From Betaproteobacteria bacterium (GTDB lineage Bacteria; Pseudomonadota; Gammaproteobacteria; Burkholderiales; CAIKXV01), in assembly GCA_021298815.1 (NCBI GenBank), contig JAJTHE010000031.1, positions 21 through 64,020 on the forward strand: DNA of 64,000 nucleotides, in the 5' to 3' direction. Of this stretch, positions 17,148 to 36,983 are shown piece after piece (position 1 is the stretch's first letter; each line of letters begins with the position of its first letter). A program made the translations under genes and the position numbers. The notes under the pieces are model-generated. The model saw nothing but the letters and a program-made list of their open reading frames with translations, had not been told where the DNA came from and made no database searches.

Positions 17148-18038
17148 TCAGGGCTTCTTCGCCACGCGCACCGCGCTCCAGGGCGCGCTGGAGGGCGGCG
17201 CGTTGTCGCCGTTGACCATCCGCACCGATCCCTTGATCGTGTTGCCCGAGACCCGACCGCTGTATTCGTGGCGGATACGCAGGCCGCCCGCGTCACCGAT
17301 CACCGTGAACGAGAGCTCGTCGCCGCGCAGCCGCGCATCCGTCAGCCAGAACGGGTCGTTGTCGATCTTCACCGGACCGCTGATCACCTGGAACTGCTGG
17401 CGCAGCTCGATGCTGAACTCCGGGTTGCCCTTGCCGACCGGCTGCTTCCAGGCCCATTCGCCCTCCACCCGCGCCGGCACGATCCACAGGTACACGCGCG
17501 TCCAGCCACGGTCGGCCCGGGCATCGGGCATCCACTCGGCCATGTCGAAATCGTGCGAGACGACGCGCGTGCCCGGCCGCAGCTCGGACAGGATGCGCGG
17601 ACGCAGCTTCAGGTTGACCGCGGGCAGCAGGTACATGGTGAGCACCGTCGCCTTCGACAGGTCGGTCTCGAACAGGTCGCGCTGGTAGAACGCGACCCGG
17701 TCGGCCACGCCTTCCTTCTCGGCGTTGCGCAGGGACAGCTTCCAGCGCTCGCTGTTCAGTTCCACGCCGAAGCCGGTTGCACCGAACTGCTTCGCGGCGG
17801 TGATCACGATCCTGCCGTCGCCCGACCCGAGGTCGATCAGGTAGTCCTTCGGGCCGACGCCGGCCATGCGCAGCATGCGGTCGACGGTCTCGTCGCTGGT
17901 CGGCACGAACGGCACGTCCAGCGGCCGGTCCATCGACTGTGCCAGCGCCGGCAGTGCCAGCGACCCGGTGCCGGCCAGCAGCGCCTGCATCCAGCGGCGG
18001 CGTTCACGGAATCGTTCGTCAAGTCCGGCTGCTGCCAT
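17148..18038 (-). CDS. exported class I SAM-methyltransferase-like protein, paralog A (subfamily I)
   Basis: GGAGA lies 8 nt upstream of ATG 18038 (alternative ATG at 18068). Signal: RERRRWMQALLAGTGSLALPALA|QS. VPFVPTSDETVDRMLRMAGVGPKDYLIDLGSGDGRIVITAAK; GFGVELN; ATVLTMYLLP; LRPGTRVVSHDF. C-terminal module: VPARVEGEWAW...PWSAVRVAKKP. Confidence 0.85.
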   Translation of the reverse strand: MAAAGLDERFRERRRWMQALLAGTGSLALPALAQSMDRPLDVPFVPTSDETVDRMLRMAGVGPKDYLIDLGSGDGRIVITAAKQFGATGFGVELNSERWKLSLRNAEKEGVADRVAFYQRDLFETDLSKATVLTMYLLPAVNLKLRPRILSELRPGTRVVSHDFDMAEWMPDARADRGWTRVYLWIVPARVEGEWAWKQPVGKGNPEFSIELRQQFQVISGPVKIDNDPFWLTDARLRGDELSFTVIGDAGGLRIRHEYSGRVSGNTIKGSVRMVNGDNAPPSSAPWSAVRVAKKP

Positions 18039-18079
18039 TCTGGCTGTCTCCTGGGGTACCTGTTTCATCGATCGGTGCT

Positions 18080-18119
18080 GTCGTGGGGTCGTGGGGTCGT
18101 GGGGTCGTGGGGTCGTGGC
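18080..18119. repeat. octanucleotide tandem repeat (gtcgtggg x4 plus one imperfect copy); G4-N4-G4-N4-G4-N4-G4 on the plus strand
   Basis: Units at 18080-87, 18088-95, 18096-103 and 18104-111, plus gtcgtggc at 18112-119. GGGG runs lie at 18085-88, 18093-96, 18101-04 and 18109-12. The repeat sits between the paralog B stop (18133) and the paralog A start. Confidence 0.9.
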
Positions 18120-18132
18120 GGTGCGCCGCCGG

Positions 18133-19158
18133 TCAGCGCTGGCGCGCCGGTTGCGCGGCAGGGTCCACCCTGCGCGCGAGGGTGGGTGCCGCAGGCTCCG
18201 CGGCCTGCGCGGCGTCGGCTGCAGCGGGGCGCACTGCGGCGACGGTCCACAGGCCCACCAGTTCGCCCGCGACCGAACGCCCTTCGAACGCATGCCGCAG
18301 GCGGCCGCCTGGCCCGTCGACGATCGCGCTGAAGGCCAGCCGGTCGCCGGAGAGCGTCGCCTGCGCGAGGCGTGCGCTGGCACCGCCGATGCGCACGCTG
18401 CCCGATACTTCCTGGTGGTTCTGCCGCAGGTCGAGCCGCCAGGTCTCGCTGCGGCCCCGGTGTTCGAAGCGGCCTTCCCACAGGCCGTTGACATAGGCCG
18501 GCACGATCCACAGGTAGAGCGTGCTGAACGGCGGACCGAACGCGCGGTCGGGCACCTCGACCTTGCCGGTCGCATCGGGCTTCCATCCCCCGAGGGGGAA
18601 ATCGTGCGACACGATCCGGGTCCCCGGACGCAGGCGCAGCAGGCGCGGCTGCAGTTCCACCAGCAGGCGCGGCAGCAGGTACAGGGTGACCACGGTCGCC
18701 GGCGACAGGTCGGTCTCGAACAGGTCGCGGCGTTCGAACAGCGCACGCGAGGCGACGCCCAGCCGCCGTGCCTCGTCGTTGCTCACCTGTACGAGGTCGG
18801 GGTCGAGTTCGACGCCGAGTCCGCGCGCGCCGCGGCTGCGCGCCGCCTCGATCACGACCCGGCCATCGCCGGACCCGAGGTCGATCACGAAATCCTTCTC
18901 GCCGACCTTGGCCAGCTCGAGCATCGCCTTCACCACCGGCCAGGGCGTGGGCACGTAGGGCACGCCGCCGGGAGAGGGTGTCTCGGATGCCTGGGCGCGG
19001 GCGGCATCCACCATCGCCGGCAGCGGCAGGACCCACAGGACCGCCGCGACCAGCAGGGCCGGCAGCGCGCGCAACCGCGTGCGCCGGGCGGACCGCTCCC
19101 GCGCCGCCCCCGCACCCGCACCCGCACCGCCTCGCATACTCCCCCGCATGCCCGCCAT
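18133..19158 (-). CDS. exported class I SAM-methyltransferase-like protein, paralog B (subfamily I)
   Basis: Signal: SARRTRLRALPALLVAAVLWVLPLPAMVDAARA|QA. VPYVPTPWPVVKAMLELAKVGEKDFVIDLGSGDGRVVIEAAR; LGVELD; ATVVTLYLLP; LRPGTRIVSHDF; VPAYVNGLWEG. Ala/Pro-rich C-terminal tail. The start could also be ATG 19149 or 19137. Confidence 0.8.
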   Translation of the reverse strand: MAGMRGSMRGGAGAGAGAARERSARRTRLRALPALLVAAVLWVLPLPAMVDAARAQASETPSPGGVPYVPTPWPVVKAMLELAKVGEKDFVIDLGSGDGRVVIEAARSRGARGLGVELDPDLVQVSNDEARRLGVASRALFERRDLFETDLSPATVVTLYLLPRLLVELQPRLLRLRPGTRIVSHDFPLGGWKPDATGKVEVPDRAFGPPFSTLYLWIVPAYVNGLWEGRFEHRGRSETWRLDLRQNHQEVSGSVRIGGASARLAQATLSGDRLAFSAIVDGPGGRLRHAFEGRSVAGELVGLWTVAAVRPAAADAAQAAEPAAPTLARRVDPAAQPARQR

Positions 19159-19284
19159 CTCGTGCCGTCCCGTCGCCGATGCATCGCTGCATGGTTGTGT
19201 CCGGCGCGCCGATCGCTGCCGTGCAACAGCGGCGAGTGTATGACGACCGACCGCAAGTCGCAAAAAGCGCCCCCCTGAACGGAA

Positions 19285-19306
19285 GAAGCCCGCCGAAGCG
19301 GGCTTC
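19285..19306 (-). terminator. intrinsic terminator after the symporter large subunit
   Basis: Minus strand reads GAAGCCCGC-TTCG-GCGGGCTTC, a 9-bp stem with a UUCG tetraloop, followed by TTCCGTT. It lies 35 nt downstream of the stop at 19341. Confidence 0.6.
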
Positions 19307-19340
19307 CCCTGTTGCCGGTGAAGCGGGATTGCGCCAGCGA

Positions 19341-21413
19341 TCAGGCGCCCTGCTTCGCCTCGTTGCCGAGCACCGGGTAGCGCACGTTCTCGACCATCTC
19401 CTGCACCGAGCGGTCGGGGGCCGCGGTCAGCAGAGAGACGACGATCAGCGTCAGCATGCCGGCCGGCATGCCGAAGATGCCTGCCGAGATCGGCGCGATG
19501 CCGAACCACAGGTCGATCTTGTAGCCGGTCATCGCGGTGAAGAACGGATACGTGGCGACCTGGTAGTACATGCAGACCGCCAGGCCGGTCAGCATGCCCG
19601 CGATCGCACCCGCCTTGTTCGCCCGCTTCCAGAACACCCCGAGAACGAGGGCCGGGAAGAAGGCAGAGGCTGCCAGCGAGAACGCCGCCCCGACCAGGAA
19701 CAGGATGTCCCCGGGGTTGAGCGAGGTCACGTAGGCCGCGATCACCGCCACCACCAGCAGCAGGCCCTTGGCCATCATCAGGCGACGCTGGGTGGACGCG
19801 TTCGGATCGATCATCTTGTAGTAGACGTCGTGCGAGAGCGCGTTGGCGATGGTCAGCAGCAGGCCGTCCGCTGTGGACAGCGCAGCCGCGAGGCCACCGG
19901 CCGCGACCAGCCCGGATATCACGTACGGCAGGCCGACGATCTCCGGGGTCGCCAGCACGATCACGTCCTGCCCGAGGGTGATCTCGGCCAGTTGCACGAT
20001 GCCGTCCATGTTGACGTCGACCACCGACAGCAGCCTCGGATCGACCTTGCTCCAGGCCGCCACCCAGGCTGGCAGGTCGGCGAAACTGTCACCGACCAGC
20101 AGCGTGTAGATGTCGAACTTGGCCAGCACCGCCAGCGCCGGCGCGGTGAAGTAGAGCAGGAAGATGAAGAACAGCGACCAGAACACCGAGCGGCGCGCCT
20201 CCTTCACCGATGGCGTCGTGTAGTAGCGCATCAGGATGTGCGGAAGCGCCGCGGTACCGACCATCAGGCAGAACACCAGCGCGAGGAAGTTCAGCCGCGC
20301 CGTGTCGCGGGCCTCTTCGGTGGCGCCCGGGAACGGCGTTGCATGCGGCCTGGGCGGTGCGGCTCGTGCATTGTTCGCATTGCGCGCGGCGGTCCACGCG
20401 GTGCGCGCAGCGGCAGCGCTGGCCGGGTAACCCGCGAGCGCCTTCTCTGCGGCCGCCACCGCGTCCGCCGGGGCGTTCGACGCCTTCAGCGCCTCGACCT
20501 TCTTGACCAGATCGGCCCGGCCGGTCTCCCATGACCCCGGAAGGCCCTTGATCTGCGCGTCGAGCGCAGCCGCACGCTCGCGGAAGATGGCGCGAACCTC
20601 GAGTTCCTTCGGATCGGCGGTGAGCACCTTCTCGCGCTCGGTGACCTTCTCGAGCACCGTGCCGTAGACCACCTGCGGCACCGGGATGCCGGTGTGCTTG
20701 TAGGCCAGCATCATCACCGGGATCATGTAGGCGATGATCAGGATGATGTACTGCGCGACCTGGGTCCAGGTCACCGCCCGCATGCCGCCCAGGAACGAGC
20801 AGACCAGGATGCCGAGCAGGCCGACGAACACGCCGACGCCGAACTCGAGGCCGGTGAAGCGCGCGGTGATCAGGCCGACGCCGTAGATCTGCGCCACGAC
20901 ATAGACGAACGACGCGAGGATCGCGGCGAACACACCGATCGTGCGCACGATGTTGCCGCCGTAGCGCTCGCCGAGGAAGTCGGGGATGGTGAACTGGCCG
21001 AACTTGCGCAGGTAGGGCGCGAGGAACAGCGCGACCAGCACGTAGCCGCCGGTCCAGCCCATGATGAACGCCAGGCCGTCGTAGCCCTGGAGGTAGAGGC
21101 CACCGGCCATGCCGATGAACGACGCGGCCGACATCCAGTCGGAGCCCGTGGCCATGCCGTTGAACACGGCCGGCACCCGGCGTCCCGCGACGTAGTACTC
21201 GGACAGGTCGGTGGTACGGCTCATGATGCCGATGCCGGCATACAGGCCGATGGTCGCCAGCAGGAACAGGTAGCCGAGCGTCCTGTTGGGCACGCCCATG
21301 AACTCGAGCGCCGCCACGCAGAGCAGGAACACGAAGAAGCCACCCGTGTAGAAGGTGTAGTACTTCTTCAGCTGCTGGGTGAATGTCTTCTGCGAGAAGG
21401 GAACGGCGCTCAT
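19341..21413 (-). CDS. sodium:solute symporter (SSS) family, large subunit of a two-component symporter (ActP / VC_2705-like)
   Basis: 690 aa. N-terminal half: FFVFLLCVAALEFMGVP...YYVAGRRVPAVFNGMATGSDWMSAASFIGMAGGLY. A roughly 100-aa hydrophilic Ala-rich insert splits the TM bundle. The start overlaps the small-subunit stop (ATGA, 21410-21413). Confidence 0.85.
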   Translation of the reverse strand: MSAVPFSQKTFTQQLKKYYTFYTGGFFVFLLCVAALEFMGVPNRTLGYLFLLATIGLYAGIGIMSRTTDLSEYYVAGRRVPAVFNGMATGSDWMSAASFIGMAGGLYLQGYDGLAFIMGWTGGYVLVALFLAPYLRKFGQFTIPDFLGERYGGNIVRTIGVFAAILASFVYVVAQIYGVGLITARFTGLEFGVGVFVGLLGILVCSFLGGMRAVTWTQVAQYIILIIAYMIPVMMLAYKHTGIPVPQVVYGTVLEKVTEREKVLTADPKELEVRAIFRERAAALDAQIKGLPGSWETGRADLVKKVEALKASNAPADAVAAAEKALAGYPASAAAARTAWTAARNANNARAAPPRPHATPFPGATEEARDTARLNFLALVFCLMVGTAALPHILMRYYTTPSVKEARRSVFWSLFFIFLLYFTAPALAVLAKFDIYTLLVGDSFADLPAWVAAWSKVDPRLLSVVDVNMDGIVQLAEITLGQDVIVLATPEIVGLPYVISGLVAAGGLAAALSTADGLLLTIANALSHDVYYKMIDPNASTQRRLMMAKGLLLVVAVIAAYVTSLNPGDILFLVGAAFSLAASAFFPALVLGVFWKRANKAGAIAGMLTGLAVCMYYQVATYPFFTAMTGYKIDLWFGIAPISAGIFGMPAGMLTLIVVSLLTAAPDRSVQEMVENVRYPVLGNEAKQGA

Positions 21414-21676
21414 TCGTCGTCTCCTTCCGACACGCCGTACTCCTTGTCGAGCCGGTTCATGTACCAGGCGTAGTAGCCGATGATCGCCACGTAGACGATC
21501 AGCGCGCCCTGCGCCCCCATGTAGAAGCCGAGCGGGAAGCCGAGGATGACGATCTCGTTGAGCTCGCGCGCGAAGAAGCTCGCGACGAAGGTGACGACGA
21601 ACCAGATGGCCAGCAGGATCGCGGTGATCCTGAGGTTCCGGCTCCAGTATTCCTCATGACGCTGCGTGAGCTGCAT
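21410..21676 (-). CDS. DUF4212-type putative solute:sodium symporter small subunit
   Basis: 88 aa: MQLTQRHEEYWSRNLRITAILLAIWFVVTFVASFFARELNEIVILGFPLGFYMGAQGALIVYVAIIGYYAWYMNRLDKEYGV. The RBS AGGAGGGGG lies 5 nt upstream of the ATG at 21676. Confidence 0.8.
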   Translation of the reverse strand: MQLTQRHEEYWSRNLRITAILLAIWFVVTFVASFFARELNEIVILGFPLGFYMGAQGALIVYVAIIGYYAWYMNRLDKEYGVSEGDDE

Positions 21677-21817
21677 GTTTTCCCCCTCCTGTGAACAACG
21701 AGATGCCTGTCGCGGCTGCGCGTGCGCCCGCACCCTGCGGACGATCGTGCGTTGCCTTGCCCCTGTGGTACGCCGCGCGTCGCCCGCACGGCATGGCCCG
21801 CAAATTCCTCTGAGGCC

Positions 21818-21838
21818 GAAAAGCGCCCGGTGGGCGCT
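21818..21838 (-). terminator. intrinsic terminator stranded inside the 358-nt spacer
   Basis: Minus strand reads AGCGCCC-ACC-GGGCGCT followed by TTTTCGG. It lies about 200 nt downstream of the stop at 22035 and about 140 nt upstream of the symporter small-subunit start. Confidence 0.55.
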
Positions 21839-22034
21839 GCCGGCACCTGCTTCGTCCGTCTGACGCGGCGTTGCAGGGCTTGAATGTGAAACCAAGGTTA
21901 GCAGGGTACCCAGTCCAGGCAGGCGTGCCAAGCCCCTGATCGAATCTCGCCGGCCCGGAGAATGGCAAGTGACCCACCTGACACGCCATCCGCCGGCACG
22001 GACAGGTCCGGAGCGGCTGCCGCGGGGCGTCGAC

Positions 22035-22352
22035 TCAGCCCGGCAGCGTCTCGCTGGCGATGCGCAGCACCAGGTAGACCTTGCCGATGTAGAGCAGCAC
22101 CCAGGCCATGACCACCAGCGCGAAGGACGCCAGGCCGATATGCGCATCCACGACGAAGCGCGGCGTGAGCAGGCGCGTGGCCCTGCGCACGGGCGAGGTC
22201 ATCACCGCCAGTACCCGGTAGAACACGTTGGTGTCCCGGGACGGACCGGCCAGCAGGGCGAGCACGCCCTGGCCGAGCAATGCGAGCCCGGCGATCTCGG
22301 CGACCGCCTTCAGCACGACCACGACGTTGTACCAGAGGGCCAGCGAGCTCAC
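22035..22352 (-). CDS. small hypothetical membrane protein (about 3 TM segments)
   Basis: 105-aa ORF with hydrophobic segments (LALWYNVVVVLKAVAEIAGLALLGQGVLALLAG; IGLASFALVVMAWVLLYIG). It lies 31 nt downstream of the Bug gene. No family was recognised. Confidence 0.5.
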   Translation of the reverse strand: MSSLALWYNVVVVLKAVAEIAGLALLGQGVLALLAGPSRDTNVFYRVLAVMTSPVRRATRLLTPRFVVDAHIGLASFALVVMAWVLLYIGKVYLVLRIASETLPG

Positions 22353-22383
22353 CCGCCGTCCCTCCCGGCGCCGCGGCCGCTCA

Positions 22384-23400
22384 TCAGCTGCCGTCGACCT
22401 TGATGCCGACCTGCTTCACGATCTTCGTCCAGCGGGCGATCTCGCTGCGCACCAGCTGGTCGTGCTGCTCGGGGGTGGACCCCACCGGCTCCGCACCCTG
22501 GCTGGACAGGCGGTCGCGCACGGCCGGGTCCTGGACTGCCTTGACCAGCGCGCCGTTGATCGTCTTGACGACGGCAGCGGGCACGTTGGCCGGTGCCAGC
22601 ATGCCGAACCCGGACGAGACCTCGTAGCCGGGGAATCCCTGCTCGGCGATCGTCGGCACGTCGGGCAGCGCCCGCGAACGCTTGGCGCTGGTCACGCCCA
22701 GCGGCCTCAGCTTGCCCGCCTGCACGTGCGACACGAACACCGGCATCGAGGCGGCCATCAGGATCACGTAGCCGCCGACGACATCGGTGATCGCCTGGCC
22801 GGAACCCTTGTACGGCACGTGCACGTAGCTGCCGCCGTTCATCGAACTCAGCAGTTCCATCGCGAGGTGGCCGACGGTGCCTGCGCCCGACGAGGCGTAG
22901 TTGAGCTTGCCCGGGTTCTTGCGCGCCAGCGCGGCCAGTTCGCGCACCGACTTCACCGGCAGCGACGGATGCGCGACGATCATCGTCGGCACGTCGGCAG
23001 CCACGCCCAGCATCGTGAAATCCTTGATGCTGTCGTAGGGCAGCTTCGGCAGGATCGCCGCGTTGAAGACATGGGCCGACGACACGAAACCGACGACATA
23101 GCCATCCGCCGGCGAACGCGCGAGCACCTCGGTGCCGATCGTGCTGCCGGCCCCGCCACGGTTCTCGATGACGAAGGTCTGCCCGAGCAGTTCCTGCATC
23201 CGGGTGGCCACGCCGCGCGCGATGATGTCGGTGTTCCCGCCCGGCGGGAACGGCACGATCATGCGGATCGGCTTGGCCGGGTAGGCCTGCGCGAACGCGA
23301 CGTCGGGCATCGACGACAGCCCGGCCAGCGACAGCACGGACATCGACAGCACGGCGGCCGGCGCGAGACGCGCATGTGCCGTTGGCATGGGGTGTTTCAT
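22384..23400 (-). CDS. Bug-family (TctC-like) substrate-binding protein
   Basis: The RBS GGAGGA precedes the ATG. A signal peptide is followed by YPAKPIRMIVPFPPGGNTDIIARGVATRM...IENRGGAGSTIG...VPYKGSGQAITDVVGGYV. Confidence 0.9.
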   Translation of the reverse strand: MKHPMPTAHARLAPAAVLSMSVLSLAGLSSMPDVAFAQAYPAKPIRMIVPFPPGGNTDIIARGVATRMQELLGQTFVIENRGGAGSTIGTEVLARSPADGYVVGFVSSAHVFNAAILPKLPYDSIKDFTMLGVAADVPTMIVAHPSLPVKSVRELAALARKNPGKLNYASSGAGTVGHLAMELLSSMNGGSYVHVPYKGSGQAITDVVGGYVILMAASMPVFVSHVQAGKLRPLGVTSAKRSRALPDVPTIAEQGFPGYEVSSGFGMLAPANVPAAVVKTINGALVKAVQDPAVRDRLSSQGAEPVGSTPEQHDQLVRSEIARWTKIVKQVGIKVDGS

Positions 23401-23496
23401 TCTGCTGATCCTCCAGTGGCGCCCGCATCCGACGGCCCGGGCGGGCTGGTCGGTGCGCAGGGAAAACGCGGTGGAATCCCGGTTCCATCCGCAGCA

Positions 23497-23512
23497 CGGC
23501 CGTCTCCGGCCG
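23497..23512 (-). terminator. weak hairpin between paralog C and the Bug gene
   Basis: Minus strand reads CGGCCG-GAGA-CGGCCG, a 6-bp stem with a GNRA-type loop and no U-tract. Confidence 0.2.
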
Positions 23513-23525
23513 CCCGCAGTTTACG

Positions 23526-24554
23526 TCACTTCACGGCAACTGCCGGGCCGAAGTTCGCAGGGCGTGCCATGCTCCGGGAAAGCACGACCTGGCCCTGCAG
23601 CAGGGCAGGATTGTCGCTGCCGACCCGCACCGTGCCGGAAGCCTCCCCGCCCCGGGTCGCCGCGAGGATCTCGTGGCGCACCTGCTTGCCGCCGATCTCG
23701 GCGTTGAAGATCACGTTCAGGTCGTTGCCGACCATCTCGGCGAACGCGAGTGTCGCCGGCCGGCCGCCGAGGGTGACGCTGCCGGTGAGCAGCTGGAAGC
23801 GCTGCTCGAGGTCGAGCTCGACCGGGAGCACCTGGCCGCCCGCGACCGGCATCTTTCCCTGCCAGCGACCGCCGCCCTGCCCGGGGACGATCCACATGTA
23901 GACGTAGGCGAGGCCGGGCGTGCCGACCTTCTTCTCGGGCACGTCGAGGGTGATGCGATCGTCGGGCAGCCAGTCCTCGAAATGGTAGTCGTGGGTGACC
24001 ACGCGCGACCCGGGCCGCAGTTCGGCCAGCAGCTTGGGGCGCGCCATCATGTTGACCTCGGGCAGCAGGTACATGGTGACGACGTCGGCCTTGGTGAGGT
24101 CGGTCTTGAAGATGTCCCGCTGGAAGAACTGCACGCGGTCGGCGACGCCTGCCTGCTTCGCGGTGGCGTTCGCATGCCTGACCAGCTCGGGGTCCAGGTC
24201 GACGCCGAAGCCGCGCACGCCCATGCGCTGCGCCGCGGTGATGACGATGCGGCCATCGCCCGAGCCGAGGTCGACCAGGAAATCCTTCGCCCCGACGCGG
24301 CCCATGCGCAGCATCTCGTCGACCACCTTCTGCGGCGTCGGCACGTACGGCGACGAGTCGAAGCGGATCACCACGGCGTCGCGCGCCGCCGCCTGCGCGA
24401 ACGCCGACGGCGACGGCGACAGCGCGGCGCCGGCGGCGCCGGCAGCCAGGGCCTGCAGGGCCCTGCGGCGGCCGGCGGCGGCGGCGTGAAGGGCAGGATG
24501 CGCAGCGACGGGTGCCGCGGCGCGCAGCGGGGAAACGGGTGGGCGGATGTTCAT
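23526..24554 (-). CDS. exported class I SAM-methyltransferase-like protein, paralog C (subfamily I)
   Basis: The ATG at 24554 forms an ATGA overlap with the paralog D stop. Signal: AGRRRALQALAAGAAGAALSPSPSAFA|QA. SPYVPTPQKVVDEMLRMGRVGAKDFLVDLGSGDGRIVITAAQ; GFGVDLD; DVVTMYLLP; LRPGSRVVTHDY; VPGQGGGRWQG. Confidence 0.85.
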   Translation of the reverse strand: MNIRPPVSPLRAAAPVAAHPALHAAAAGRRRALQALAAGAAGAALSPSPSAFAQAAARDAVVIRFDSSPYVPTPQKVVDEMLRMGRVGAKDFLVDLGSGDGRIVITAAQRMGVRGFGVDLDPELVRHANATAKQAGVADRVQFFQRDIFKTDLTKADVVTMYLLPEVNMMARPKLLAELRPGSRVVTHDYHFEDWLPDDRITLDVPEKKVGTPGLAYVYMWIVPGQGGGRWQGKMPVAGGQVLPVELDLEQRFQLLTGSVTLGGRPATLAFAEMVGNDLNVIFNAEIGGKQVRHEILAATRGGEASGTVRVGSDNPALLQGQVVLSRSMARPANFGPAVAVK

Positions 24555-30522: not shown

Positions 30523-31464
30523 CTAGCGCGTCCCCGCTGACGGATCGATCGACGCGGCCCTGCCGCCGGTACGCACCGCTGACCAGGGTGAGGTCTGCTC
30601 GACCCTGTCGAACGTTCGTACCGTGCCTTCGATCGTTTCGCCGCGGGCGCGGCCGACGAAATCATGGCGAAGCGTGCGGCCATTCAGCTCGACGGCCGCG
30701 CTGATGCGCACGTCCTCGCCGCGCAGCGTGGTGAGCGATACGTTCATCGGCCGCCCGGCCGCGGTGCCGCGCACCTCGAGGTCCTGCAGCCGCTGGCGCA
30801 CCGCCACCTCCACCGGCTGGCCGCCGGGCAGCTTCCACTGCCAGTTGCCGGAGACGTTGGCCGGCACGATCCAGAGATAGACATAGCTGACCCCCGGGTT
30901 GCCGACCTGCTTCTCGGGCACCTGCATGGTGACCGATTCCTCGGCCTGCCAGTCGCCCATGTTGTAGTCGTGCGACACGATGCGCGAGCCGGGTCGCAGT
31001 TCGGCCAGCAGCTTGGGACGCAGCTTCAGGTTCAGCTCGGGCAGCAGGTAAAGCGTGATCACGCTCGCGGCGCTGACGTCGGTCTCGAACATGTTGCGCC
31101 TGATGAAGGCGACACGATCGGCGACGCCCTGCTTCTTCGCGTTCTCGTTGGCCTGGCGCAGCAGTTCGTCGTCGAGGTCGAAGCCGCGGCCGCCCTTGGC
31201 GCCGAACTTCGCCACCGCGGTGATCAGCTGGCGGCCGTCGCCCGACCCCAGGTCGATCACGAAGTCGGACGGACCGACCCGGGCCATCGTCATCATGCGG
31301 TTCACCACCACCTGTGGCGTGGGCACGTAGACCACGTCGCCGGCGCCGGTCTGGGCACGCAGCAGCGGCGCCAGGGCCGCGGCGCCGGTGCCTGCAGCGG
31401 CCACCGCGACGGCGGCGAGCAGCCGCCGCCGCGAAGGATCGGCTTTCGAATGACTGGAATCCAT
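30523..31464 (-). CDS. exported class I SAM-methyltransferase-like protein, paralog J (subfamily I)
   Basis: The RBS GGAGGT lies 6 nt upstream of ATG 31464. Tat-like signal: DPSRRRLLAAVAVAAAGTGAAALAPLLRA|QT. VVYVPTPQVVVNRMMTMARVGPSDFVIDLGSGDGRQLITAVA; ASVITLYLLP; LRPGSRIVSHDY; VPANVSGNWQW; PWSAVRT. Confidence 0.85.
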   Translation of the reverse strand: MDSSHSKADPSRRRLLAAVAVAAAGTGAAALAPLLRAQTGAGDVVYVPTPQVVVNRMMTMARVGPSDFVIDLGSGDGRQLITAVAKFGAKGGRGFDLDDELLRQANENAKKQGVADRVAFIRRNMFETDVSAASVITLYLLPELNLKLRPKLLAELRPGSRIVSHDYNMGDWQAEESVTMQVPEKQVGNPGVSYVYLWIVPANVSGNWQWKLPGGQPVEVAVRQRLQDLEVRGTAAGRPMNVSLTTLRGEDVRISAAVELNGRTLRHDFVGRARGETIEGTVRTFDRVEQTSPWSAVRTGGRAASIDPSAGTR

Positions 31465-31484
31465 GCAGGTACCTCCGGAAGCCT

Positions 31485-32408
31485 TCACTTGATCCTGGAT
31501 GCGGCGAACGCCGTCGTCGCGGCGATCGTCGACTCGATGCTGCCTTCCATCCGGTCGCCGTCGACCCGGGCGCGCACGATCGCACGACCGGCACGCCCGC
31601 CCGGCGCCTCGACCGGCAGCGCGAAGCGCAGGTCGAGACCGCGGAGCGAGGTCGCGTCGAGGCGGCGCGCAGCGCGCCCGGCCGCGGCGAGCGTACCCTC
31701 GAAGTCGTTCAGGCCCTGCTGCAGCGACAGCTCGACGCGATCGAAGGCCGGGTTCCCCGGCGCGCTGACCGTCCAGCGTCCGTCGACCCGGGCCGGCACC
31801 AGGAACAGGTACACGGTCGCGTCGGGCACGCCGGTGATCGCCGCCTTCTCCGGCACGTCGAAGGTGACGTGGCTTGCCGCGCGCCAGTCCTCGAAGTGGT
31901 AGTCGTGGGCGACGATGCGCGTGCCGGGCCGCAGGTCGGTGAGGAAGCGCGGGCGCAGCTTCATCATCATCCACGGCAGCAGGTACAGCGTGAGCACCGT
32001 CGCCTCGCGAACGTCGGTGTCGAAGATGTTCCGTTCCTCGAAGCGCACGAGGTGGCCCACCCCTTCCCGGGCCGCCGTGTCGTTGGCCAGGCGCACGAGG
32101 TCGCCGTCGATGTCGACACCATAGCCGCGCGCGCCGTGCCGCTTCGCGGCGGAGATCACCAGCCGGCCGTCGCCGCAGCCGAGATCCATCACGAGGTCCT
32201 GCGCGCGGATGCCGCCGGCACCGATCATCTGGTCGACCACCGGCCAGGGCGTGGGCACGTACGGCCCGCCATTGCGGTCGAGCGGCTTCTTCCCTGCTGG
32301 CGCCTGCGCCAGCAGGGACATGGCGCCGGCTGCAAGCCCGGCACCGCCTGCCCCGGTGGCAAGCGCGAGCAGTGCGCGCCGGCGGGTGCGGATGCGGGCG
32401 GCGTCCAT
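31485..32408 (-). CDS. exported class I SAM-methyltransferase-like protein, paralog K (subfamily I)
   Basis: The start overlaps the paralog L stop (TGATG). Tat-like signal: IRTRRRALLALATGAGGAGLAAGAMSLLA|QA. GPYVPTPWPVVDQMIGAGGIRAQDLVMDLGCGDGRLVISAAK; ATVLTLYLLP; LRPGTRIVAHDY; VPARVDGRWTV. Confidence 0.85.
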   Translation of the reverse strand: MDAARIRTRRRALLALATGAGGAGLAAGAMSLLAQAPAGKKPLDRNGGPYVPTPWPVVDQMIGAGGIRAQDLVMDLGCGDGRLVISAAKRHGARGYGVDIDGDLVRLANDTAAREGVGHLVRFEERNIFDTDVREATVLTLYLLPWMMMKLRPRFLTDLRPGTRIVAHDYHFEDWRAASHVTFDVPEKAAITGVPDATVYLFLVPARVDGRWTVSAPGNPAFDRVELSLQQGLNDFEGTLAAAGRAARRLDATSLRGLDLRFALPVEAPGGRAGRAIVRARVDGDRMEGSIESTIAATTAFAASRIK

Positions 32409-33346
32409 CAGCTGCCGCGCACGTAGGTCCAGGCGCCCTCGGGCCCGGGTTCGGCGGCCACGGTGCGGACCATCCGGAACGGCGTCTCGCTGCGCCGGCC
32501 TTCGGTCTCGGTACGGAAATAGCCTTCGATGGTATTGCCCTTCGGATCGGTGCCGCGTGCGACGCGCCCGAAGAAGCGGCGGAAGGTGAACTGACGGTCG
32601 ACCTCTTCCATCATGATGAAGGTGAGACCGTCGCCGGCGAGCCGGATGTCGCGCAGGCCGACCTTCGCGCCATCGGCCTTCACCTCGGCGTCGATGTCCT
32701 GGAAGCGCTGGCGGAACACGATCTCGTGGTTGCGCGTGCCCGCGCCGGGAAGGTCGAGCCGGGCCGTCCAGGTGCCCGCGATGCGCGCCGGTATCCACCA
32801 GAAGTAGACATGGCTGCCGTAGTCGCGCAGCCGGATGTGCAGGTCGGGCTTCCAGTCGCCGAGGTCGAAGTCGTGCGACACGATGCGCGTGCCCGGCCGC
32901 AGTTCCGCCAGCAGCTTGGGCCGCACCCGCAGGTTCACCTTCACGCCCAGGTAGAGCGTCACCACCGTCGCCTTCGACAGGTCGGCGTCGAACAGGTTCC
33001 GCTCGGTGAAGCGCACACGGTCCGACACGCCGGCGACCTTCGCCAGCTCGATGCTTTCCTGCACCAGCGCCGGGTCGATCTCGTAGCCGATGCCGGGTGC
33101 GCCCCAGTCGCGAGCCGCCGCGATGTTGATGCGGCCATCGCCCGAACCGAGGTCGACCACGAAGTCCTTCGGCGTGACGTTCGCGATGCGCAGCATCGTG
33201 TCGATCAGCGTGAAGTTGGTCGGCGCGAACGGCACGTCGAGCTTGAGTTGAGCAAGCGCGCTGGCGGGCAGCACCGCGGTCGTGCCGCCGGCGGCGGCCG
33301 ACAGCGCGGCGAGCAGCGAGCGGCGGCGGGGATTCGGCAGCATCAA
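32408..33346 (-). CDS. exported class I SAM-methyltransferase-like protein, paralog L (subfamily I, first gene of the L-to-I run)
   Basis: Tat-like signal: MMLPNPRRRSLLAALSAAAGGTTAVLPASALA|QL. VPFAPTNFTLIDTMLRIANVTPKDFVVDLGSGDGRINIAAAR; ATVVTLYLG; LRPGTRIVSHDF; IPARIAGTWTA. Confidence 0.85.
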   Translation of the reverse strand: MMLPNPRRRSLLAALSAAAGGTTAVLPASALAQLKLDVPFAPTNFTLIDTMLRIANVTPKDFVVDLGSGDGRINIAAARDWGAPGIGYEIDPALVQESIELAKVAGVSDRVRFTERNLFDADLSKATVVTLYLGVKVNLRVRPKLLAELRPGTRIVSHDFDLGDWKPDLHIRLRDYGSHVYFWWIPARIAGTWTARLDLPGAGTRNHEIVFRQRFQDIDAEVKADGAKVGLRDIRLAGDGLTFIMMEEVDRQFTFRRFFGRVARGTDPKGNTIEGYFRTETEGRRSETPFRMVRTVAAEPGPEGAWTYVRGS

Positions 33347-33559
33347 CCGGGTTCGATGAGGTTCGGGGACGGGAAGAAGGGCTTATCGACCTGGTCAGTT
33401 TAACATGCAGGCTGTGCCGGCCAGCGCATGGACGGCATCGATGCTTCCCCGCGCCACCGGGCACGCTCGCCCGCGGCACACGCCTGCACGGGCCGGCATC
33501 GCGGCGGCGGTCGCCGCGCCCTGAAGCCGGCGACCGCAGGCGACGATCACGGGCAGCGA

Positions 33560-33578
33560 CCGGCCTGCTTCAGGCCGG
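33560..33578 (-). terminator. 8-bp hairpin overlapping the cupin stop codon
   Basis: CCGGCCTG-AAG-CAGGCCGG on the minus strand; tight 3-nt loop and no U-tract. Confidence 0.2.
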
Positions 33579-33875
33579 CATGACCTCGATCTCGACGAAC
33601 GTGAACTCGAACGGATTCGGGTTGATCACGTTGTGGCTCACCCCGACCTGCCGGGCGTAGGACACGCCGGCGGTCAGTTCCACCTCGCGCACCCCTTCGG
33701 GTTCCTCGAGGCGCAGGCGGCCGGTGGTCATCGGCACCACCACGTAGTCCATGCCGTGCACATGCTGGCCGGTTTCGGCGCCGGGCGCGAACCGCCATTC
33801 GGTCACGCGGAAGCGACCGTTGTCGACCTGCACCGTCGGCACGGCTGCGGGACGGGCGTCAGGCGACATCGGCAC
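33570..33875 (-). CDS. small cupin-domain protein
   Basis: 101 aa: FRVTEWRFAPGAETGQHVHGMDYVVVPMTTGRLRLEEPEG...VGVSHNVINPNPFEFTFVEIE, a single cupin barrel with G-x-H-x-H. GTG start at 33875; an ATG two codons in is an alternative. Confidence 0.75.
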   Translation of the reverse strand: MPMSPDARPAAVPTVQVDNGRFRVTEWRFAPGAETGQHVHGMDYVVVPMTTGRLRLEEPEGVREVELTAGVSYARQVGVSHNVINPNPFEFTFVEIEVMPA

Positions 33876-34034
33876 TCCGTCGGCGGCGTGCGACCAGTCC
33901 CGGCAGGGCGAGGCCGGGAACCAGCAGCGCGAGGGGCAGCACGAGGGCCGCGAGCAGTTGCTTCATTCCGGGATCTCCATGGACGCGGCCCCGCGACCAG
34001 GGCCCGCACGTCGGCTAACCTAGCAAAAATCGTG

Positions 34035-34745
34035 TCATCGAGATAGCCCGCCCCCGCCGCCGGTCGATCCGTCCGGAACGGCGCGGCGGCGCCCGGGCGC
34101 TGGCCCGGGATAGCCGCTCCATGCCGCAACCGTCGTCGCGCTCGCCATGTAGAGCGGATGCCGCGGGTGGCCTTCCCGCGTCAGGCCGAGCACGCCCAGC
34201 ACCAGCCCCTCCTGCCGCAGGCGCGACGCGACCCGCCGGCCACGATCGGCAAGCGCCCCGTGCACGCCCCAGGCGCAGACCACCTGCCCGGCCTCGCGCG
34301 CCATCGCCAGGATCGCCGCGTCGTTGCGCCGGCCCACCGGCGACGGATGCGCATAGAGTGCCCGCGGGTCGGTGCTGCGCAGCGCGAAGATGTTCGCCAC
34401 CAGCAGCCCGCCGAAGCCGTTCGCCCGCGCACGCCGCTCGCAGCGCTCGACCGTCGGATCGTTGCGCTCCTCGTCGGCGGTCGACGGATTGAGCATGATC
34501 ATCAGCAGCGGCGCACGCGACAGGTCCCAGTGGCGCCACAGCCGGTAGCGATACTGGCGGTCGCGCGAAAAGGTCGCGCCCGAGGAGATGCGCGCGGCGG
34601 CGCCCGGCCCGGGGTCCCCGGACCGGCCATCGCCGCGCGGCGCTGCCGCGCTCAGCGCGCCGCGAAGCAGTACAGCCGCCCGTCGCCGCCGGTGCTGCGC
34701 AGCGCCTCGATGCTGCAGGCCTTGGACGGGTGCGACGAATTCCAT
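34035..34745 (-). CDS. DUF1643-domain protein (start uncertain)
   Basis: The core FSRDRQYRYRLWRHWDLSRAPLLMIMLNPSTADEERNDPTVERCERRARANGFGGLLVANIFALRSTDP...VVCAWGVHG...LGLTREGHPRHPLY matches the DUF1643 pattern. The only canonical in-frame start is ATG 34745, which overlaps the upstream gene by 94 nt. Confidence 0.6.
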   Translation of the reverse strand: MEFVAPVQGLQHRGAAQHRRRRAAVLLRGALSAAAPRGDGRSGDPGPGAAARISSGATFSRDRQYRYRLWRHWDLSRAPLLMIMLNPSTADEERNDPTVERCERRARANGFGGLLVANIFALRSTDPRALYAHPSPVGRRNDAAILAMAREAGQVVCAWGVHGALADRGRRVASRLRQEGLVLGVLGLTREGHPRHPLYMASATTVAAWSGYPGPAPGRRRAVPDGSTGGGGGLSR

Positions 34746-35308
34746 GACCGCGACGCCTCGTCGTCCTTCAGTCCGGCACGGTCATGGTGTCCGACCATCG
34801 CGGAACCGGCACCGCTGCGCGTCCAGTTGCCGCAGGTGCGGTCGTCGCCCGCCGGGAAGGCCGTACCGTCGGGTCGCGACCCGGTGAGGATGTCGTGCAT
34901 GTTCGGCTTCTGCGTACGGCCGTTCAGCTGCACGCCCTTGTCGGTCAGCGCCGTCTGCAGGTTCAGGTTGTTGTTGCCATGCAGTTCGTCGACGCCGGAG
35001 GCGATCACCACGCCCTTCGCATTGACCCAGGGTCCGCGGCCGATCCGGTCGCGCGCGTGCACGGCTGGCGCGTCGGCGGTGGGCTGCGTGCTGAGATACG
35101 CACGCCAGGTGCGCCGGCCGCCGGCACCGGCTTCGTTCGCCAGCCGCTGGCACAACGCATCCGCGCCTGCCAGCCCGCCGAAATCGGCGCCCTTGCCCGA
35201 ATCGACGCTGGTGATGAAGAAAGTCATCGGCGACTTCGGCTCGTCGATCAGCATGCAGCCCGTGAGCACCGTTGCGGACGCGACCAGCGCCCATTTCCTG
35301 AAGTTCAT
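34652..35308 (-). CDS. lipoprotein with an endostatin / C-type-lectin-like domain
   Basis: The RBS GGGAGGA lies 7 nt upstream of ATG 35308. Lipobox: MNFRKWALVASATVLTG|C. Four-Cys pattern: GLAGADALCQRLANEAGAGGRRTWRAYLST ... RTCGNWT ... SKACS ... GRLYCFA. Confidence 0.7.
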   Translation of the reverse strand: MNFRKWALVASATVLTGCMLIDEPKSPMTFFITSVDSGKGADFGGLAGADALCQRLANEAGAGGRRTWRAYLSTQPTADAPAVHARDRIGRGPWVNAKGVVIASGVDELHGNNNLNLQTALTDKGVQLNGRTQKPNMHDILTGSRPDGTAFPAGDDRTCGNWTRSGAGSAMVGHHDRAGLKDDEASRSWNSSHPSKACSIEALRSTGGDGRLYCFAAR

Positions 35309-35444
35309 CCCTGAATCCTCCCGTGTCGACAGGTTTGCCCGGCCGGATGCCCCCATCCTGCCGCAGGCCGAGTGTGCACCTTTGCCGTGTGCCGGCAAGC
35401 GTGCACAGGGAGCGGGACGCTTCAGGCGCGGATGGTGCGCCGAA

Positions 35445-35942
35445 TCATTCTTCGAGCAGGGAGCGCAGCATCCACGCCGCCTGTTCGTGCACGGTCAGGC
35501 GCTGGGTCAGCAGGTCGGCGGTCGGCTCGTCGCCCGCCTTCTCGACCACCGGGAACAGCGAGCGTGCAGTGCGGGCGACCGCCTCGTGCCCCTGCACCAG
35601 GATGGCGACCATGTCGAGCGCCACGGGCCGGGTCTCGGGCGCATCCTTGAGCGAGGTCAGGCGGCCGAACTGCGCATAGGAACCCGGGGCGATGTGGCCC
35701 AGCGAACGGATGCGCTCGGCGATCGGATCGACCGCATTCCAGAGTTCGGTGTACTGCACCATGAACATCGTGTGCAGCGTGTTGAACATCGGGCCATTAA
35801 CGTTCCAGTGGAAGTTGTGCGTGGTCAGGTACAGCGTGTACGTGTCGGCCAGCAGCTTCGAGAGGCCGTCCGCGATCGCGGCGCGGTTCCTTTCGCTGAT
35901 GCCGATGTCGATGGCCGGTGCCATGCCTGCGCTTTTTTTCGC
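35445..35942 (-). CDS. dps: Dps (DNA starvation/stationary-phase protection protein, ferritin-like)
   Basis: [56 protein letters not shown], the Dps ferroxidase-site pattern. A TTG start at 35942 lies 6 nt after AGGAGA; the ATG at 35924 is an alternative. Confidence 0.9.
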
Positions 35943-36053
35943 CAAGGGATTCTCCTTCAGGTGTTTCGGATCAACGGGATTGCACGGGCGCGGTACGCAG
36001 CGATCGCGCCCGCGGCGCGGGCCGCGCACGATGGACCCGCGCACTGCCGCCGG

Positions 36054-36983
36054 TCAGCGCGCGAGCCGCGCTTCCCATTTCGCCGTCGCCGCGGACGCCC
36101 GGGCGTTGAACGTCGCCGTGCCGGCCACCGTGTCGCCCTTCACCAGCCCGTCGAACTCGTGCCGGAAGCGTTCCGCGCGGCCGGACGGCTCGAGCGCGAA
36201 GCGGAACCGCTCGCCATCGATACGCAGTCCGGCGAGCTCGACCGGCTGCCCGTTCAGGGTCGCCTTGCCGGTCAGCATCTGGTAGGACTGCGACACGGCA
36301 AGCTCCACCCGTCCGCCCCCCTGCGCGGCCGGCAGTTCGAACGCCCAGCGGCCGGCGACCTGCGCCGGGACCGTCCACAGCATCAGCGTGCTGTGCCGGT
36401 CGCGCCCGACCGGCTTGTCGGGCACGAACATGCGCAGCGAGATGTCCGGCTGCCAGTCGGCCAGCATCGCGTAGTCGTGCGACACGATGCGGGTTCCGGG
36501 GCGCAGCGCGGCGAGCTTCGGGGTGAGCAGCTGCATCACCTTCGGCAGCAGGTAGAGGCTGACCACCGTCGCCTTCGAGAAATCGGACTCGAACAGGTCC
36601 TGGGTCAGGAACTGGGCACGGTCGCTGATGCCCATCTTCTTGGCCGACTGGCGGCTGCGTTCGATCAGCCGCGGATCGATCTCGATGCCATGCCCGCGGG
36701 CGCCGAACTTCGCCACGGCCGTCAGCACGATGCGCCCGTCGCCGGAACCGATGTCGATCAGGTAGTCGCCCTTGCCGACGCCGGCGAGGTGGAGCATCCG
36801 CTCGACCACGTCCGCGGGGGTAGGCACGTAGGGCGTATCGGTGTCCTCGTCGACGATGCCGGCATCGGCCGAGCTGCGCGTGGCCGGCGCGGTGCCGGCC
36901 TGCGCCAGGACCGTGGCGGGGACCAGCACGGCACCCATCGCGGCCACCAGCACCAGCACCGACAGCGCCCGTGCCGGTGTCAT
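36054..36983 (-). CDS. exported class I SAM-methyltransferase-like protein, paralog M (subfamily I, solitary copy)
   Basis: Sec-type signal: MTPARALSVLVLVAAMGAVLVPATVLA|QA. TPYVPTPADVVERMLHLAGVGKGDYLIDIGSGDGRIVLTAVA; GHGIEID; ATVVSLYLLP; LRPGTRIVSHDY; VPAQVAGRWAF. C-terminus: KWEARLAR. Confidence 0.85.
   Translation of the reverse strand: MTPARALSVLVLVAAMGAVLVPATVLAQAGTAPATRSSADAGIVDEDTDTPYVPTPADVVERMLHLAGVGKGDYLIDIGSGDGRIVLTAVAKFGARGHGIEIDPRLIERSRQSAKKMGISDRAQFLTQDLFESDFSKATVVSLYLLPKVMQLLTPKLAALRPGTRIVSHDYAMLADWQPDISLRMFVPDKPVGRDRHSTLMLWTVPAQVAGRWAFELPAAQGGGRVELAVSQSYQMLTGKATLNGQPVELAGLRIDGERFRFALEPSGRAERFRHEFDGLVKGDTVAGTATFNARASAATAKWEARLAR

Follow-up and report, generated by a model that had tools for sequence, protein, structure and literature searches.

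Thirteen clustered genes for predicted exported methyltransferases of the aKMT/FAM173 kind, and their conserved pairing with a LAT-type permease, in a betaproteobacterial genome

In bacteria, methylation that depends on S-adenosylmethionine (AdoMet, or SAM) is treated as a cytoplasmic process. The enzyme aKMT of Sulfolobus islandicus (PDB entries 5FA8, 5FAD and 5JWJ; NCBIfam model NF041081) is a broad-specificity protein-lysine methyltransferase, a cytoplasmic, single-domain, single-copy protein of 161 amino acids (aa). It is a homolog of the human enzymes FAM173A (ANTKMT) and FAM173B (ATPSCKMT), which methylate the ADP/ATP carrier and the ATP synthase c-subunit, respectively (PMC9006661). The same source, a review of mitochondrial methylation, states that aKMT has homologs in alphaproteobacteria and says nothing further of them (PMC9006661). 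The cofactor supply to the compartment of the FAM173 enzymes depends on SLC25A26, an exchanger of SAM and S-adenosylhomocysteine (AdoHcy, or SAH; PMC9239748). Here we describe thirteen genes, lettered A to M, that form an array between positions 17148 and 36983 of a stretch of 64,000 nucleotides (nt) from Betaproteobacteria bacterium (order Burkholderiales; GCA_021298815.1, contig JAJTHE010000031.1, positions 21–64,020, forward strand), referred to below as the window. Their products are clear relatives of aKMT and FAM173, are predicted to be exported, and belong to a large family whose genes form a strongly conserved pair with the gene for a permease resembling amino acid exchangers.

The window proteins share with aKMT the compact seven-beta-strand domain and, in most copies but not all, the N-terminal (Y/F)VPTP lid and the motifs DLGxGDGR and SH(D/E)F, but they carry a signal peptide and a C-terminal beta-barrel, are present as 13 diverged copies, and score below the equivalog cut-off of NF041081. 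FAM173A and FAM173B likewise possess an N-terminal hydrophobic segment, a pre-methyltransferase region, the seven-beta-strand domain and the motif I Asp. Unlike the window proteins, they are held by uncleaved anchors and face the matrix, a compartment topologically equivalent to the cytoplasm. Each acts on a single specific membrane protein, and neither has a barrel or occurs in tandem arrays. The closest solved structure is 5BXY of Salinibacter ruber (41% identity), deposited as an 'RNA methyltransferase' and crystallised with SAH; we found no publication or functional assay for it, and nothing that we found supports the deposited label. The S. ruber protein is also predicted to be exported and is encoded beside a permease of the same family, but it lacks the beta-barrel module and is single-copy. 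Lumenal or extracellular methylation is described in eukaryotes, where Golgi methyltransferases operate with Golgi SAM transporters and METTL9 is secreted (PMC6397879; bioRxiv 10.64898/2025.12.23.696137). They share with our proposal the idea of a SAM-dependent methyltransferase that lies topologically outside the cytoplasm and is enabled by cofactor transport, whereas these systems are eukaryotic and their enzyme and transporter families are unrelated to those of the window. A first reading of the window's sequence (the original prediction) had named no characterised bacterial function for this architecture, and in the family libraries and open-access literature that we searched, we likewise found none of the exported bacterial proteins characterised. 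What is new here is an apparently exported, barrel-fused, multi-copy and transporter-linked form of a known kind of enzyme, and we regard the pairing of methyltransferase and exchanger as the most valuable result.

All thirteen genes lie on the minus strand as intact open reading frames (ORFs) without internal stops, of 296–342 aa and 12,252 nt in total, in a window with a G+C content of ~70%. The translations and a MAFFT alignment agreed with the original prediction of full-length homology, which extends from the signal peptide as far as the C-terminus and is not confined to the generic Rossmann G-loop: 26 columns are invariant and 18 nearly so, the invariant residues including D69, G71 and G75 of motif I and P188, G193 and W195 of the second module. 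Pairwise identity is 31–61%, with a median of 39%; D, E, F, G and H (45–61%) form a sub-clade with the common mature N-terminus Q-E-(R/Q/Y)-(F/W)-S. The spacing that had been reported for the runs of genes proved exact, with 13 nt between H and G, 13 between G and F, 103 between F and E, 3 between E and D, 20 between K and J, and 0 between J and I, and with overlaps of 4 nt (ATGA) between D and C and 1 nt between L and K; B and A are separated by 94 nt. A tblastn search with all 13 proteins found no extra copy or pseudogene in the window. The copies are listed here with their orthologs in two other genome loci, L001 and L034, the latter from another Burkholderiales metagenome-assembled genome (MAG), and with the ratio of nonsynonymous to synonymous substitution rates (dN/dS).

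Paralog A, 17148–18038, minus strand: 296 aa; signal peptide, aKMT-like methyltransferase domain and beta-barrel; last methyltransferase gene before the permease gene; NF041081 130 bits; L001 ortholog with 90% aa identity, dN/dS 0.12.
Paralog B, 18133–19158, minus strand: 341 aa; long Gly/Ala/Arg-rich N-terminus and Pro/Ala-rich C-terminal tail; L001 ortholog with 65% identity, dN/dS 0.28.
Paralog C, 23526–24554, minus strand: 342 aa; canonical motifs PYVPTP, DLGSGDGR and THDY; ortholog L034:10898, dN/dS 0.23.
Paralog D, 24551–25507, minus strand: 318 aa; D–H clade; lid FVGSP, and SNGFE instead of SHDF; variants the same in ortholog L034:9987.
Paralog E, 25511–26434, minus strand: 307 aa; D–H clade; FGPSS, GSGNGQ, and VNGQLIG with an insertion; n-region SRRTFIAG resembling twin-arginine translocation (Tat) signals; variants identical in ortholog L034:8895, which lacks the twin arginine (RR).
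Paralog F, 26538–27443, minus strand: 301 aa; D–H clade; modelled with AlphaFold2.
Paralog G, 27457–28368, minus strand: 303 aa; D–H clade; most divergent active site, with SFPAGSS lid, GSFDG motif I and NGALIDNA, all three kept in ortholog L034:7044, dN/dS 0.29.
Paralog H, 28382–29323, minus strand: 313 aa; basal in the D–H clade, canonical SHDF; ortholog L034:5927 with 82% identity, dN/dS 0.18.
Paralog I, 29593–30522, minus strand: 309 aa; GTG start; lid FITTP; ortholog L034:4900, dN/dS 0.30.
Paralog J, 30523–31464, minus strand: 313 aa; nearest to the family consensus (GDVVYVPTPQ); NF041081 130 bits; exact match in three assemblies.
Paralog K, 31485–32408, minus strand: 307 aa; motif I GCGDGR; ortholog L034:2499, dN/dS 0.33.
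Paralog L, 32408–33346, minus strand: 312 aa; start more probably ATG at 33343 than TTG at 33346, a minor correction; ortholog L034:1984 with 77% identity, dN/dS 0.23.
Paralog M, 36054–36983, minus strand: 309 aa; signal peptide of the general secretory (Sec) type; divergent from the gene for a membrane protein resembling spermidine synthase (SpdSyn).

Pfam recognised only generic class I methyltransferase domains in the 13 copies, and NF041081, the model of archaeal protein-lysine N-methyltransferase aKMT, was the top NCBIfam match of every copy (77–130 bits, E 1e-21 to 1e-38). A search of the PDB with a profile of the 13 copies placed 5BXY (E 1e-62) and aKMT (3e-54 for 5FA8/5FAD and 1e-52 for 5JWJ) far ahead of the rest. 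The alignments cover profile positions 41–197, which take in the lid (Y/F)VPTP, motif I DLGSGDGR, the post-I G-V-(D/E), the ATVVT(L/M)YLL strand and RPGTR(I/V)VSHD(F/Y), and they stop at the W-I-V-P linker. The AlphaFold2 model of copy F (mean predicted local distance difference test, pLDDT, 90; predicted template modelling score, pTM, 0.84) consists of an N-terminal helix at residues 6–34, corresponding to the signal peptide, a Rossmann domain at 43–181, and an all-beta domain at 188–288. Its catalytic domain superposed best on 5BXY, with a template modelling (TM) score of 0.93 at 1.2 Å, and on aKMT 5FAD/5FA8 with TM scores of 0.85–0.87 (target-normalised values), so that structure prediction and fold search also identify an aKMT-type catalytic domain. 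The motif I Asp, the post-I acidic residue (D/E) and the F..D motif do not vary among the 13 copies, and 11 of these have an intact GxGxG, the exceptions being G with GSFDG and E with GSGNGQ; in FAM173B the motif I Asp is essential, as the D94A substitution abolishes function (PMC5828452). The catalytic domain is a clear relative of aKMT and FAM173, family membership and fold being directly supported, and the likeness to ATPSCKMT/ANTKMT that the original prediction had named is confirmed by the NF041081 and PDB profile matches and by the published homology of aKMT and FAM173 (PMC9006661, PMC5828452). Because their scores lie below the equivalog cut-off, the copies are relatives of aKMT and not orthologs.

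Signal peptides were judged by eye and with a regular expression. In each of the 13 copies the n-region is basic and a hydrophobic core follows it, and the A-Q at the presumed cleavage site (A-x-A↓Q) is almost invariant. Nearly all of 31 diverse homologs begin with a textbook signal peptide of the Sec type, after which comes Q-E-G-x-G-D-V-V-Y-V-P-T-P-Q. The exported architecture with its A-x-A↓Q site, as first proposed, is therefore upheld at the level of predicted signal peptides in the copies and in homologs. The Arg-rich n-region held in part, given that RR is found in 11 of the 13 copies but is not kept in the orthologs, those of L034 often being without it. RR-type n-regions were counted in 38 of 72 copies from array loci and in 21 of 79 others; most homologs are Sec-like. 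Export is thus a robust prediction, whereas Tat dependence is not established. We rejected Tat export of a folded, SAM-loaded enzyme as a general answer to the cofactor problem because RR is not conserved in orthologs and the family is mostly of the Sec type. The native S. ruber protein behind 5BXY (206 aa; gene L084:5001–5621) has the Sec signal peptide MSRLRFLSVVLLALGLLLGHGPRSGYA↓QQ; the structural-genomics entry represents its mature domain. The C-terminal barrel was found in other proteins with signal peptides (see below), which we counted as support for export. One might argue that the N-terminal segment is instead an uncleaved anchor and that the catalytic domain remains cytoplasmic, comparable to the matrix-facing FAM173A and FAM173B, which carry an N-terminal transmembrane anchor and not a cleaved signal (PMC9006661). 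We consider this highly improbable, since the hydrophobic core is preceded by the positive charges and followed by the nearly invariant A-x-A↓Q, one homolog has a lipobox, an ORF of locus L080 (described below) puts the domain after a thirteenth helix, outside, and the barrel co-occurs with other secreted domains. In place of the cytoplasmic or matrix location typical of FAM173, cleavable signal peptides are predicted for the 13 copies and for the family. A member from a Coleofasciculus MAG (L085:3621–4328) has a lipoprotein signal (LSGC) and a long Thr/Gln/Pro-rich linker and no barrel; its gene adjoins a permease gene and lies downstream of two Methyltransf_3 (O-methyltransferase-like) genes.

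With J as query, more than 7000 homologs were retrieved, bearing generic names or none, and the family appears to comprise thousands of members that are predicted to be exported nearly everywhere. A scan of one genome per species yielded at least 582 loci, and the counts of loci, neighbours and array sizes given in this text rest on the best 80 of these. Among the 80 loci are those of Burkholderiales, other Betaproteobacteria, Bordetella petrii, Marinimicrobium, Alkalilimnicola, Rhodospirillaceae, Hyphomicrobiales, Prolixibacteraceae/Mariniphaga, Balneolales, Acidobacteriota and Desulfuromonadales. Counting within ±10 kb, we found a single copy at 55 loci and two copies at 12, and arrays of 10, 7, 7, 7, 6, 6 and 5 copies were seen only in Betaproteobacteria/Burkholderiales MAGs; the five-copy locus is labelled Streptomycetaceae, yet it groups with these MAGs. 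Thirteen is the largest number among the loci examined, but with arrays of 5–10 copies in related MAGs the expansion is a trait of this lineage and not a one-off. Strong matches were also obtained to Planctomycete proteins of ~480–550 aa (Gemmatales and relatives; P0023–P0028, P0089, P0114 and P0117), which apparently have two methyltransferase domains; one of them is annotated 'TIGR03000 family' by its source.

The gene downstream of the array encodes the permease:

LAT-type APC permease, 15657–17018, minus strand: 453 aa; same strand as A and 129 nt downstream of it; Pfam AA_permease_2, TIGR00911.

The score with TIGR00911 (L-type amino acid transporter) is 182 bits, below the cut-off of 702. 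The closest solved relatives are obligatory exchangers, namely y+LAT1 (E 1e-44), BasC (5e-43) and LAT1/2 (1e-36 to 1e-38), and the values for y+LAT1/2, BasC, xCT, b0,+AT and LAT1/2 range from 1e-31 to 1e-44. The similarity to LAT/SLC7 exchangers (BasC, y+LAT1/2, LAT1/2 and xCT; E 1e-36 to 1e-44) is full-length, and the alignment contains the amino-acid-binding signatures G-x-G of transmembrane helix 1 and GGWNE of helix 6, but the permease belongs to a distinct bacterial subfamily, whose defining trait is that its genes adjoin those of the exported methyltransferase. Source annotations of its relatives read 'basic amino acid/polyamine antiporter'. Permease orthologs, 41–52% identical across phyla, are encoded beside the methyltransferase on the same strand, with gaps of 11–280 bp, at 24 of 51 loci, the 51 being those with 1.5 kb or more of flanking sequence on either side. 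The paired loci include those of B. petrii, Marinimicrobium, Alkalilimnicola, four alphaproteobacterial orders, Bacteroidales/Prolixibacteraceae, Balneolaceae and Desulfuromonadales. The S. ruber permease gene, whose product is 47% identical to that of the window, ends 50 bp before the 5BXY gene. The look-up was also made in the reverse direction, from four permease homologs picked arbitrarily, one of them from a Coleofasciculus cyanobacterium and one from an Armatimonadota MAG, and each of the four had an exported aKMT-like methyltransferase adjoining it. Methyltransferase and permease are therefore a strongly conserved gene pair. An SSF symporter gene also accompanies the methyltransferase in both the window and S. 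ruber; we take this as coincidence, the two SSF proteins being 29% identical over parts of their lengths.

The pair occurs once as a single ORF of 751 aa, without a stop between the two parts (L080:8552–10807, from a Desulfuromonadales MAG; junction ...SERRTRV/MKRIMSSLLLLSLAGLVFIWLMG...). The former signal segment would then be a thirteenth transmembrane helix of the 12-helix permease, with the methyltransferase outside. The ORF could be a natural fusion or the product of a sequencing (long-read) indel, and it is a single case. One hypothesis for the conserved pairing is that the exchanger carries AdoMet and AdoHcy, because both are alpha-amino acids (AdoMet being cationic) and because SAM/SAH exchangers feed methyltransferases that are compartmentalised; SAM/SAH exchangers of other transporter families are known in Chlamydia (CTL843; PMC3104491) and in mitochondria (SLC25A26; PMC9239748). 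The idea is tentative, and we incline to doubt it more than to accept it. Another hypothesis is that the exported methyltransferases modify periplasm-facing loops of membrane transport proteins, including the neighbouring permease. The eukaryotic members do target lysines of inner-membrane transport proteins (PMC9006661), and methyltransferase and permease are strictly adjacent and once even joined; but periplasmic AdoMet would still be required, and one permease cannot explain 13 specialised copies. This explanation seems improbable to us.

The age of the array was examined with a neighbour-joining tree of 151 family members from the 80 genome loci. In the tree, each of the copies C to L pairs with one gene of L034, where the order L-K-J-I-H-G-F-E-D-C is the same, giving ten one-to-one orthologs; for A and B the partners are genes of L001 and L002. 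The ortholog pairs are 65–90% identical, with a synonymous divergence (dS) of 0.46–0.95 and dN/dS of 0.12–0.33. These ratios indicate purifying selection on the 12 copies that have an ortholog, and the duplications are older than the split between these lineages; age and selection of the copies have direct support. The possibility that the array is an assembly artefact, or the result of very recent duplication or gene conversion, could be entertained on account of identical stretches of 26–34 nt between copies. It has practically no chance of being correct. The 21-kb stretch is co-linear, without gaps and at 99.98–100% identity, in three independent assemblies (two JGI metagenomes and GCA_046346235.1), which rules out misassembly; L034 has the same gene order; and nucleotide identity between copies is at most 77–82% over less than 600 nt. 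Furthermore, four-fold sites within identical residues match between paralogs at 0.47–0.69, near saturation, as compared with 0.43 expected from base composition. The 26-mer from which gene conversion had been suggested is present at 25101 and 27085, and at no other site, as stated, but it is no evidence of gene conversion, which we rejected as its explanation: the 26-mer encodes the common peptide FYHRNVFDA, four-fold sites are 92% G or C, and codon bias together with the common peptide suffices to explain the identity.

The copies differ from one another in the motifs that line the acceptor site. The acceptor-side motifs, the (Y/F)VPTP lid and SH(D/E)(F/Y), are canonical or nearly so in A, B, C, H, J, K and M, and partly so in I and L; counted overall, eight or nine copies retain a canonical lid and SHD(F/Y). 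The deviating copies are D (FVGSP and SNGFE), F (FVPSA and THLF), E (FGPSS, GSGNGQ, and VNGQLIG with an insertion) and G (SFPAGSS, GSFDG, and NGALIDNA with an insertion). The L034 orthologs of D, E, F and G show exactly the same deviations, although dS has reached 0.6–0.8; these are thus fixed, selected differences at the acceptor and cofactor site and not decay. Since the lid and post-III motifs lining the acceptor site have diverged and are fixed in the orthologs, we infer that each copy has its own target. Copy G may be a pseudoenzyme or have an altered chemistry, and one or both of G and E may be regulatory pseudoenzymes. A more radical hypothesis is that the whole family is used without catalysis, as periplasmic sensors of AdoMet/AdoHcy or of nucleosides or sulfonium compounds, as scavenging receptors for the permease, or as structural pseudoenzymes. 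No methyl donor is known in the periplasm, and G and E are still under purifying selection with altered motif I and lid, as this hypothesis would have it. On the other hand, in thousands of homologs the acceptor-side motifs are conserved to the same degree as those of the cofactor site, which is unexpected for a mere binder, 13 receptors for one ligand are hard to rationalise, and no APC permease is known to use a binding protein. We give non-catalytic use a slim chance. The D–H clade also has a C-terminal tail, (Y/W)F(R/Q)PTG(V/L/I)xxK (e.g., 26541–26580, minus strand), which is present in the L034 orthologs too and absent from the other copies. A sortase or PEP-CTERM signal was ruled out for this tail, which is followed by no hydrophobic segment.

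Because the methyltransferase domain dominated the fold search with the full model, the C-terminal module was modelled and searched separately. The C-terminal 110–120 residues modelled alone with AlphaFold2 formed eight consecutive antiparallel strands (pLDDT 86), the same strands as in the full-length model. The separate second module with the VPA.V.G.W opening was thus correctly foreseen, and it turns out to be an independent 8-stranded beta-barrel domain. Its fold matches were weak (E ~0.03, TM score 0.45–0.6) and comprised designed beta-barrels, CRBP/FABP, nitrobindin, lipocalin-type prostaglandin D synthase and Tp0751. Pfam and NCBIfam gave no model match to the barrel alone, and homology to a described calycin family was not detectable with these libraries. 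The module is thus an up-and-down barrel of the calycin-like kind, and no solved structure is closely related to it. A profile of the barrel searched against 1.84 billion representative proteins gave 3054 matches at E≤1e-3, 868 of them at E≤1e-10. The barrel occurs in 2–8 tandem repeats in secreted proteins of 240–1027 aa (e.g., P0126 and P0130, with Sec signal peptides), is fused to an FGE-sulfatase domain (P0164) and to SnoaL/DUF4440 (P0127), and follows the methyltransferase in proteins of ~300 aa. It is therefore a mobile accessory module of extracytoplasmic proteins, a widespread secreted domain that has so far no model and a candidate for a new domain family. The matches with barrels also include P0121 and P0143.

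The nature of the barrel bears on the possibility that the enzymes methylate small molecules in the periplasm, such as a free amino acid, a polyamine or a lipid head-group amine, with the permease moving the acceptor or product and the barrel binding the ligand. The folds nearest to the barrel are indeed those of small-ligand and lipid binders, the permease is nearest to amino acid exchangers, including the cationic y+LAT, and has relatives annotated as basic amino acid/polyamine antiporters, and the gene pair is tightly conserved. Nevertheless, this hypothesis leaves the supply of the methyl donor unexplained, the closest characterised relatives (aKMT, FAM173A and FAM173B) all methylate protein lysines, and 13 diverged copies beside one permease would better fit many macromolecular targets. 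We think that small-molecule methylation is unlikely.

The mechanism that we propose is methylation of amines in the periplasm by an ancient, vertically inherited set of class I enzymes of the aKMT/FAM173 type that have copy-specific targets and are fed by the permease. The precursors would be exported with mostly Sec-type and some Tat-like signal peptides and cleaved at A-x-A↓Q, leaving a mature protein that would run from the aKMT-like catalytic domain through the W-I-V-P-A linker to the 8-stranded calycin-like beta-barrel. The catalytic domain would N-methylate amine acceptors in the cell envelope, the best guess being protein lysine, on the grounds of homology, as all characterised relatives methylate protein lysines. 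The barrel might serve as a recognition or ligand-binding module, each of the 13 copies would have a target of its own, with one or both of G and E perhaps acting as regulatory pseudoenzymes, and the LAT-type exchanger would supply periplasmic AdoMet and retrieve AdoHcy. As a whole, we regard this mechanism as about evenly poised between right and wrong.

Several points weigh against the proposed mechanism. The periplasm is generally held to lack AdoMet, and none of the known bacterial AdoMet transporters is an APC protein; the permease could carry an ordinary amino acid just as well, and about half of the loci with enough flank have no adjacent permease. No bacterial periplasmic methyltransferase was found in the open-access literature that we searched. 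All 13 copies, at 77–130 bits, fall short of the NF041081 equivalog cut-off of 200 bits, and the acceptor could differ from that of aKMT. Copies G and E deviate in motif I and have perhaps lost AdoMet binding, and the weak likeness of the barrel to lipid and small-ligand binders fits a small-molecule or lipid acceptor equally well. Finally, the function of the family is deduced, for all of its members, from sequence and modelling.

Next to M, and divergent from it, is a gene for a second protein with an AdoMet-related fold:

Fused MFS/spermidine-synthase-like membrane protein (SpdSyn-like protein), 37199–38866, plus strand: 555 aa; divergent from M; NF037959 155 bits.

Orthologs with 52–57% identity are encoded divergently from the array in nine further array-bearing Burkholderiales MAG loci. 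The protein has seven transmembrane segments, and since the number of Lys and Arg residues in successive loops alternates (3.2/0.4/3.1/0.0/2.5 over ten orthologs), its AdoMet-fold (aminopropyltransferase-like) domain is predicted to face the periplasm. One could envision a wider extracytoplasmic methylation system, spread over many phyla, in which an exported methyltransferase is joined with a LAT-type SAM/SAH exchanger, the 13 specialised copies, with acceptor sites and barrels of their own, place methyl marks on different envelope proteins, and the SpdSyn-like enzyme draws on the same cofactor pool. We offer this picture as a possibility with the balance against it. Other neighbours gave no such signal, as they were confined to one tight MAG clade or belonged to very large families (Bug/TctC, regulators).

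A broad family of exported methyltransferases implies either an overlooked supply of methyl donor to the periplasm or an unrecognised non-catalytic role of the fold, and the gene pair makes the question testable in the cultivable B. petrii, S. ruber and Marinimicrobium. If the proposed mechanism is true, then envelope proteins would have a new layer of post-translational modification, the permease would represent a new class of AdoMet transporter, bacteria would have a counterpart related to the mitochondrial FAM173 enzymes, whose partner is a SAM/SAH carrier, and the 13-copy array would amount to a natural library of specificities.

The remaining genes of the region are described briefly. Between C and B lie a gene for a Bug/TctC-family binding protein (22384–23400, minus strand) and a pair encoding DUF4212 and SSF symporter proteins (19341–22147, minus strand), which look like insertions because related MAGs have contiguous arrays. 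The genes inserted between M and L are a cupin gene (33570–33962) and two minus-strand genes (34035–34745 and 34652–35398) for, respectively, a DUF1643 protein that strongly matches the phage family phrog_3230 (E 1e-52) and a putative lipoprotein (lipobox LTGC, weak DUF1554). An Rfam scan of the whole window gave no match, and hence no SAM riboswitch at this locus. Nor was there any sign that the array has to do with defence or phages, as PADLOC and PHROGs gave only generic Rossmann-domain matches (mad2, type II methyltransferase, DNA methyltransferase). The promoter and terminator scan of the array gave nothing above shuffled expectation, save a terminator-like site at 19289–19269 between the SSF gene and B. 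Following the SpdSyn-like gene, a DsbD gene (38995–41220, plus strand; 741 aa; DsbD_N, DsbD_TM and Thioredoxin_7) and an AhpC/TSA-type redoxin gene (from 41298, plus strand) constitute a module for the supply of periplasmic reductant, of which none was seen beside the arrays of other MAGs. A Dps/ferritin-like gene (35445–36044, minus strand; 159–199 aa, as its start differs among gene callers) begins 9 nt after the stop codon of M and is probably co-transcribed with it.

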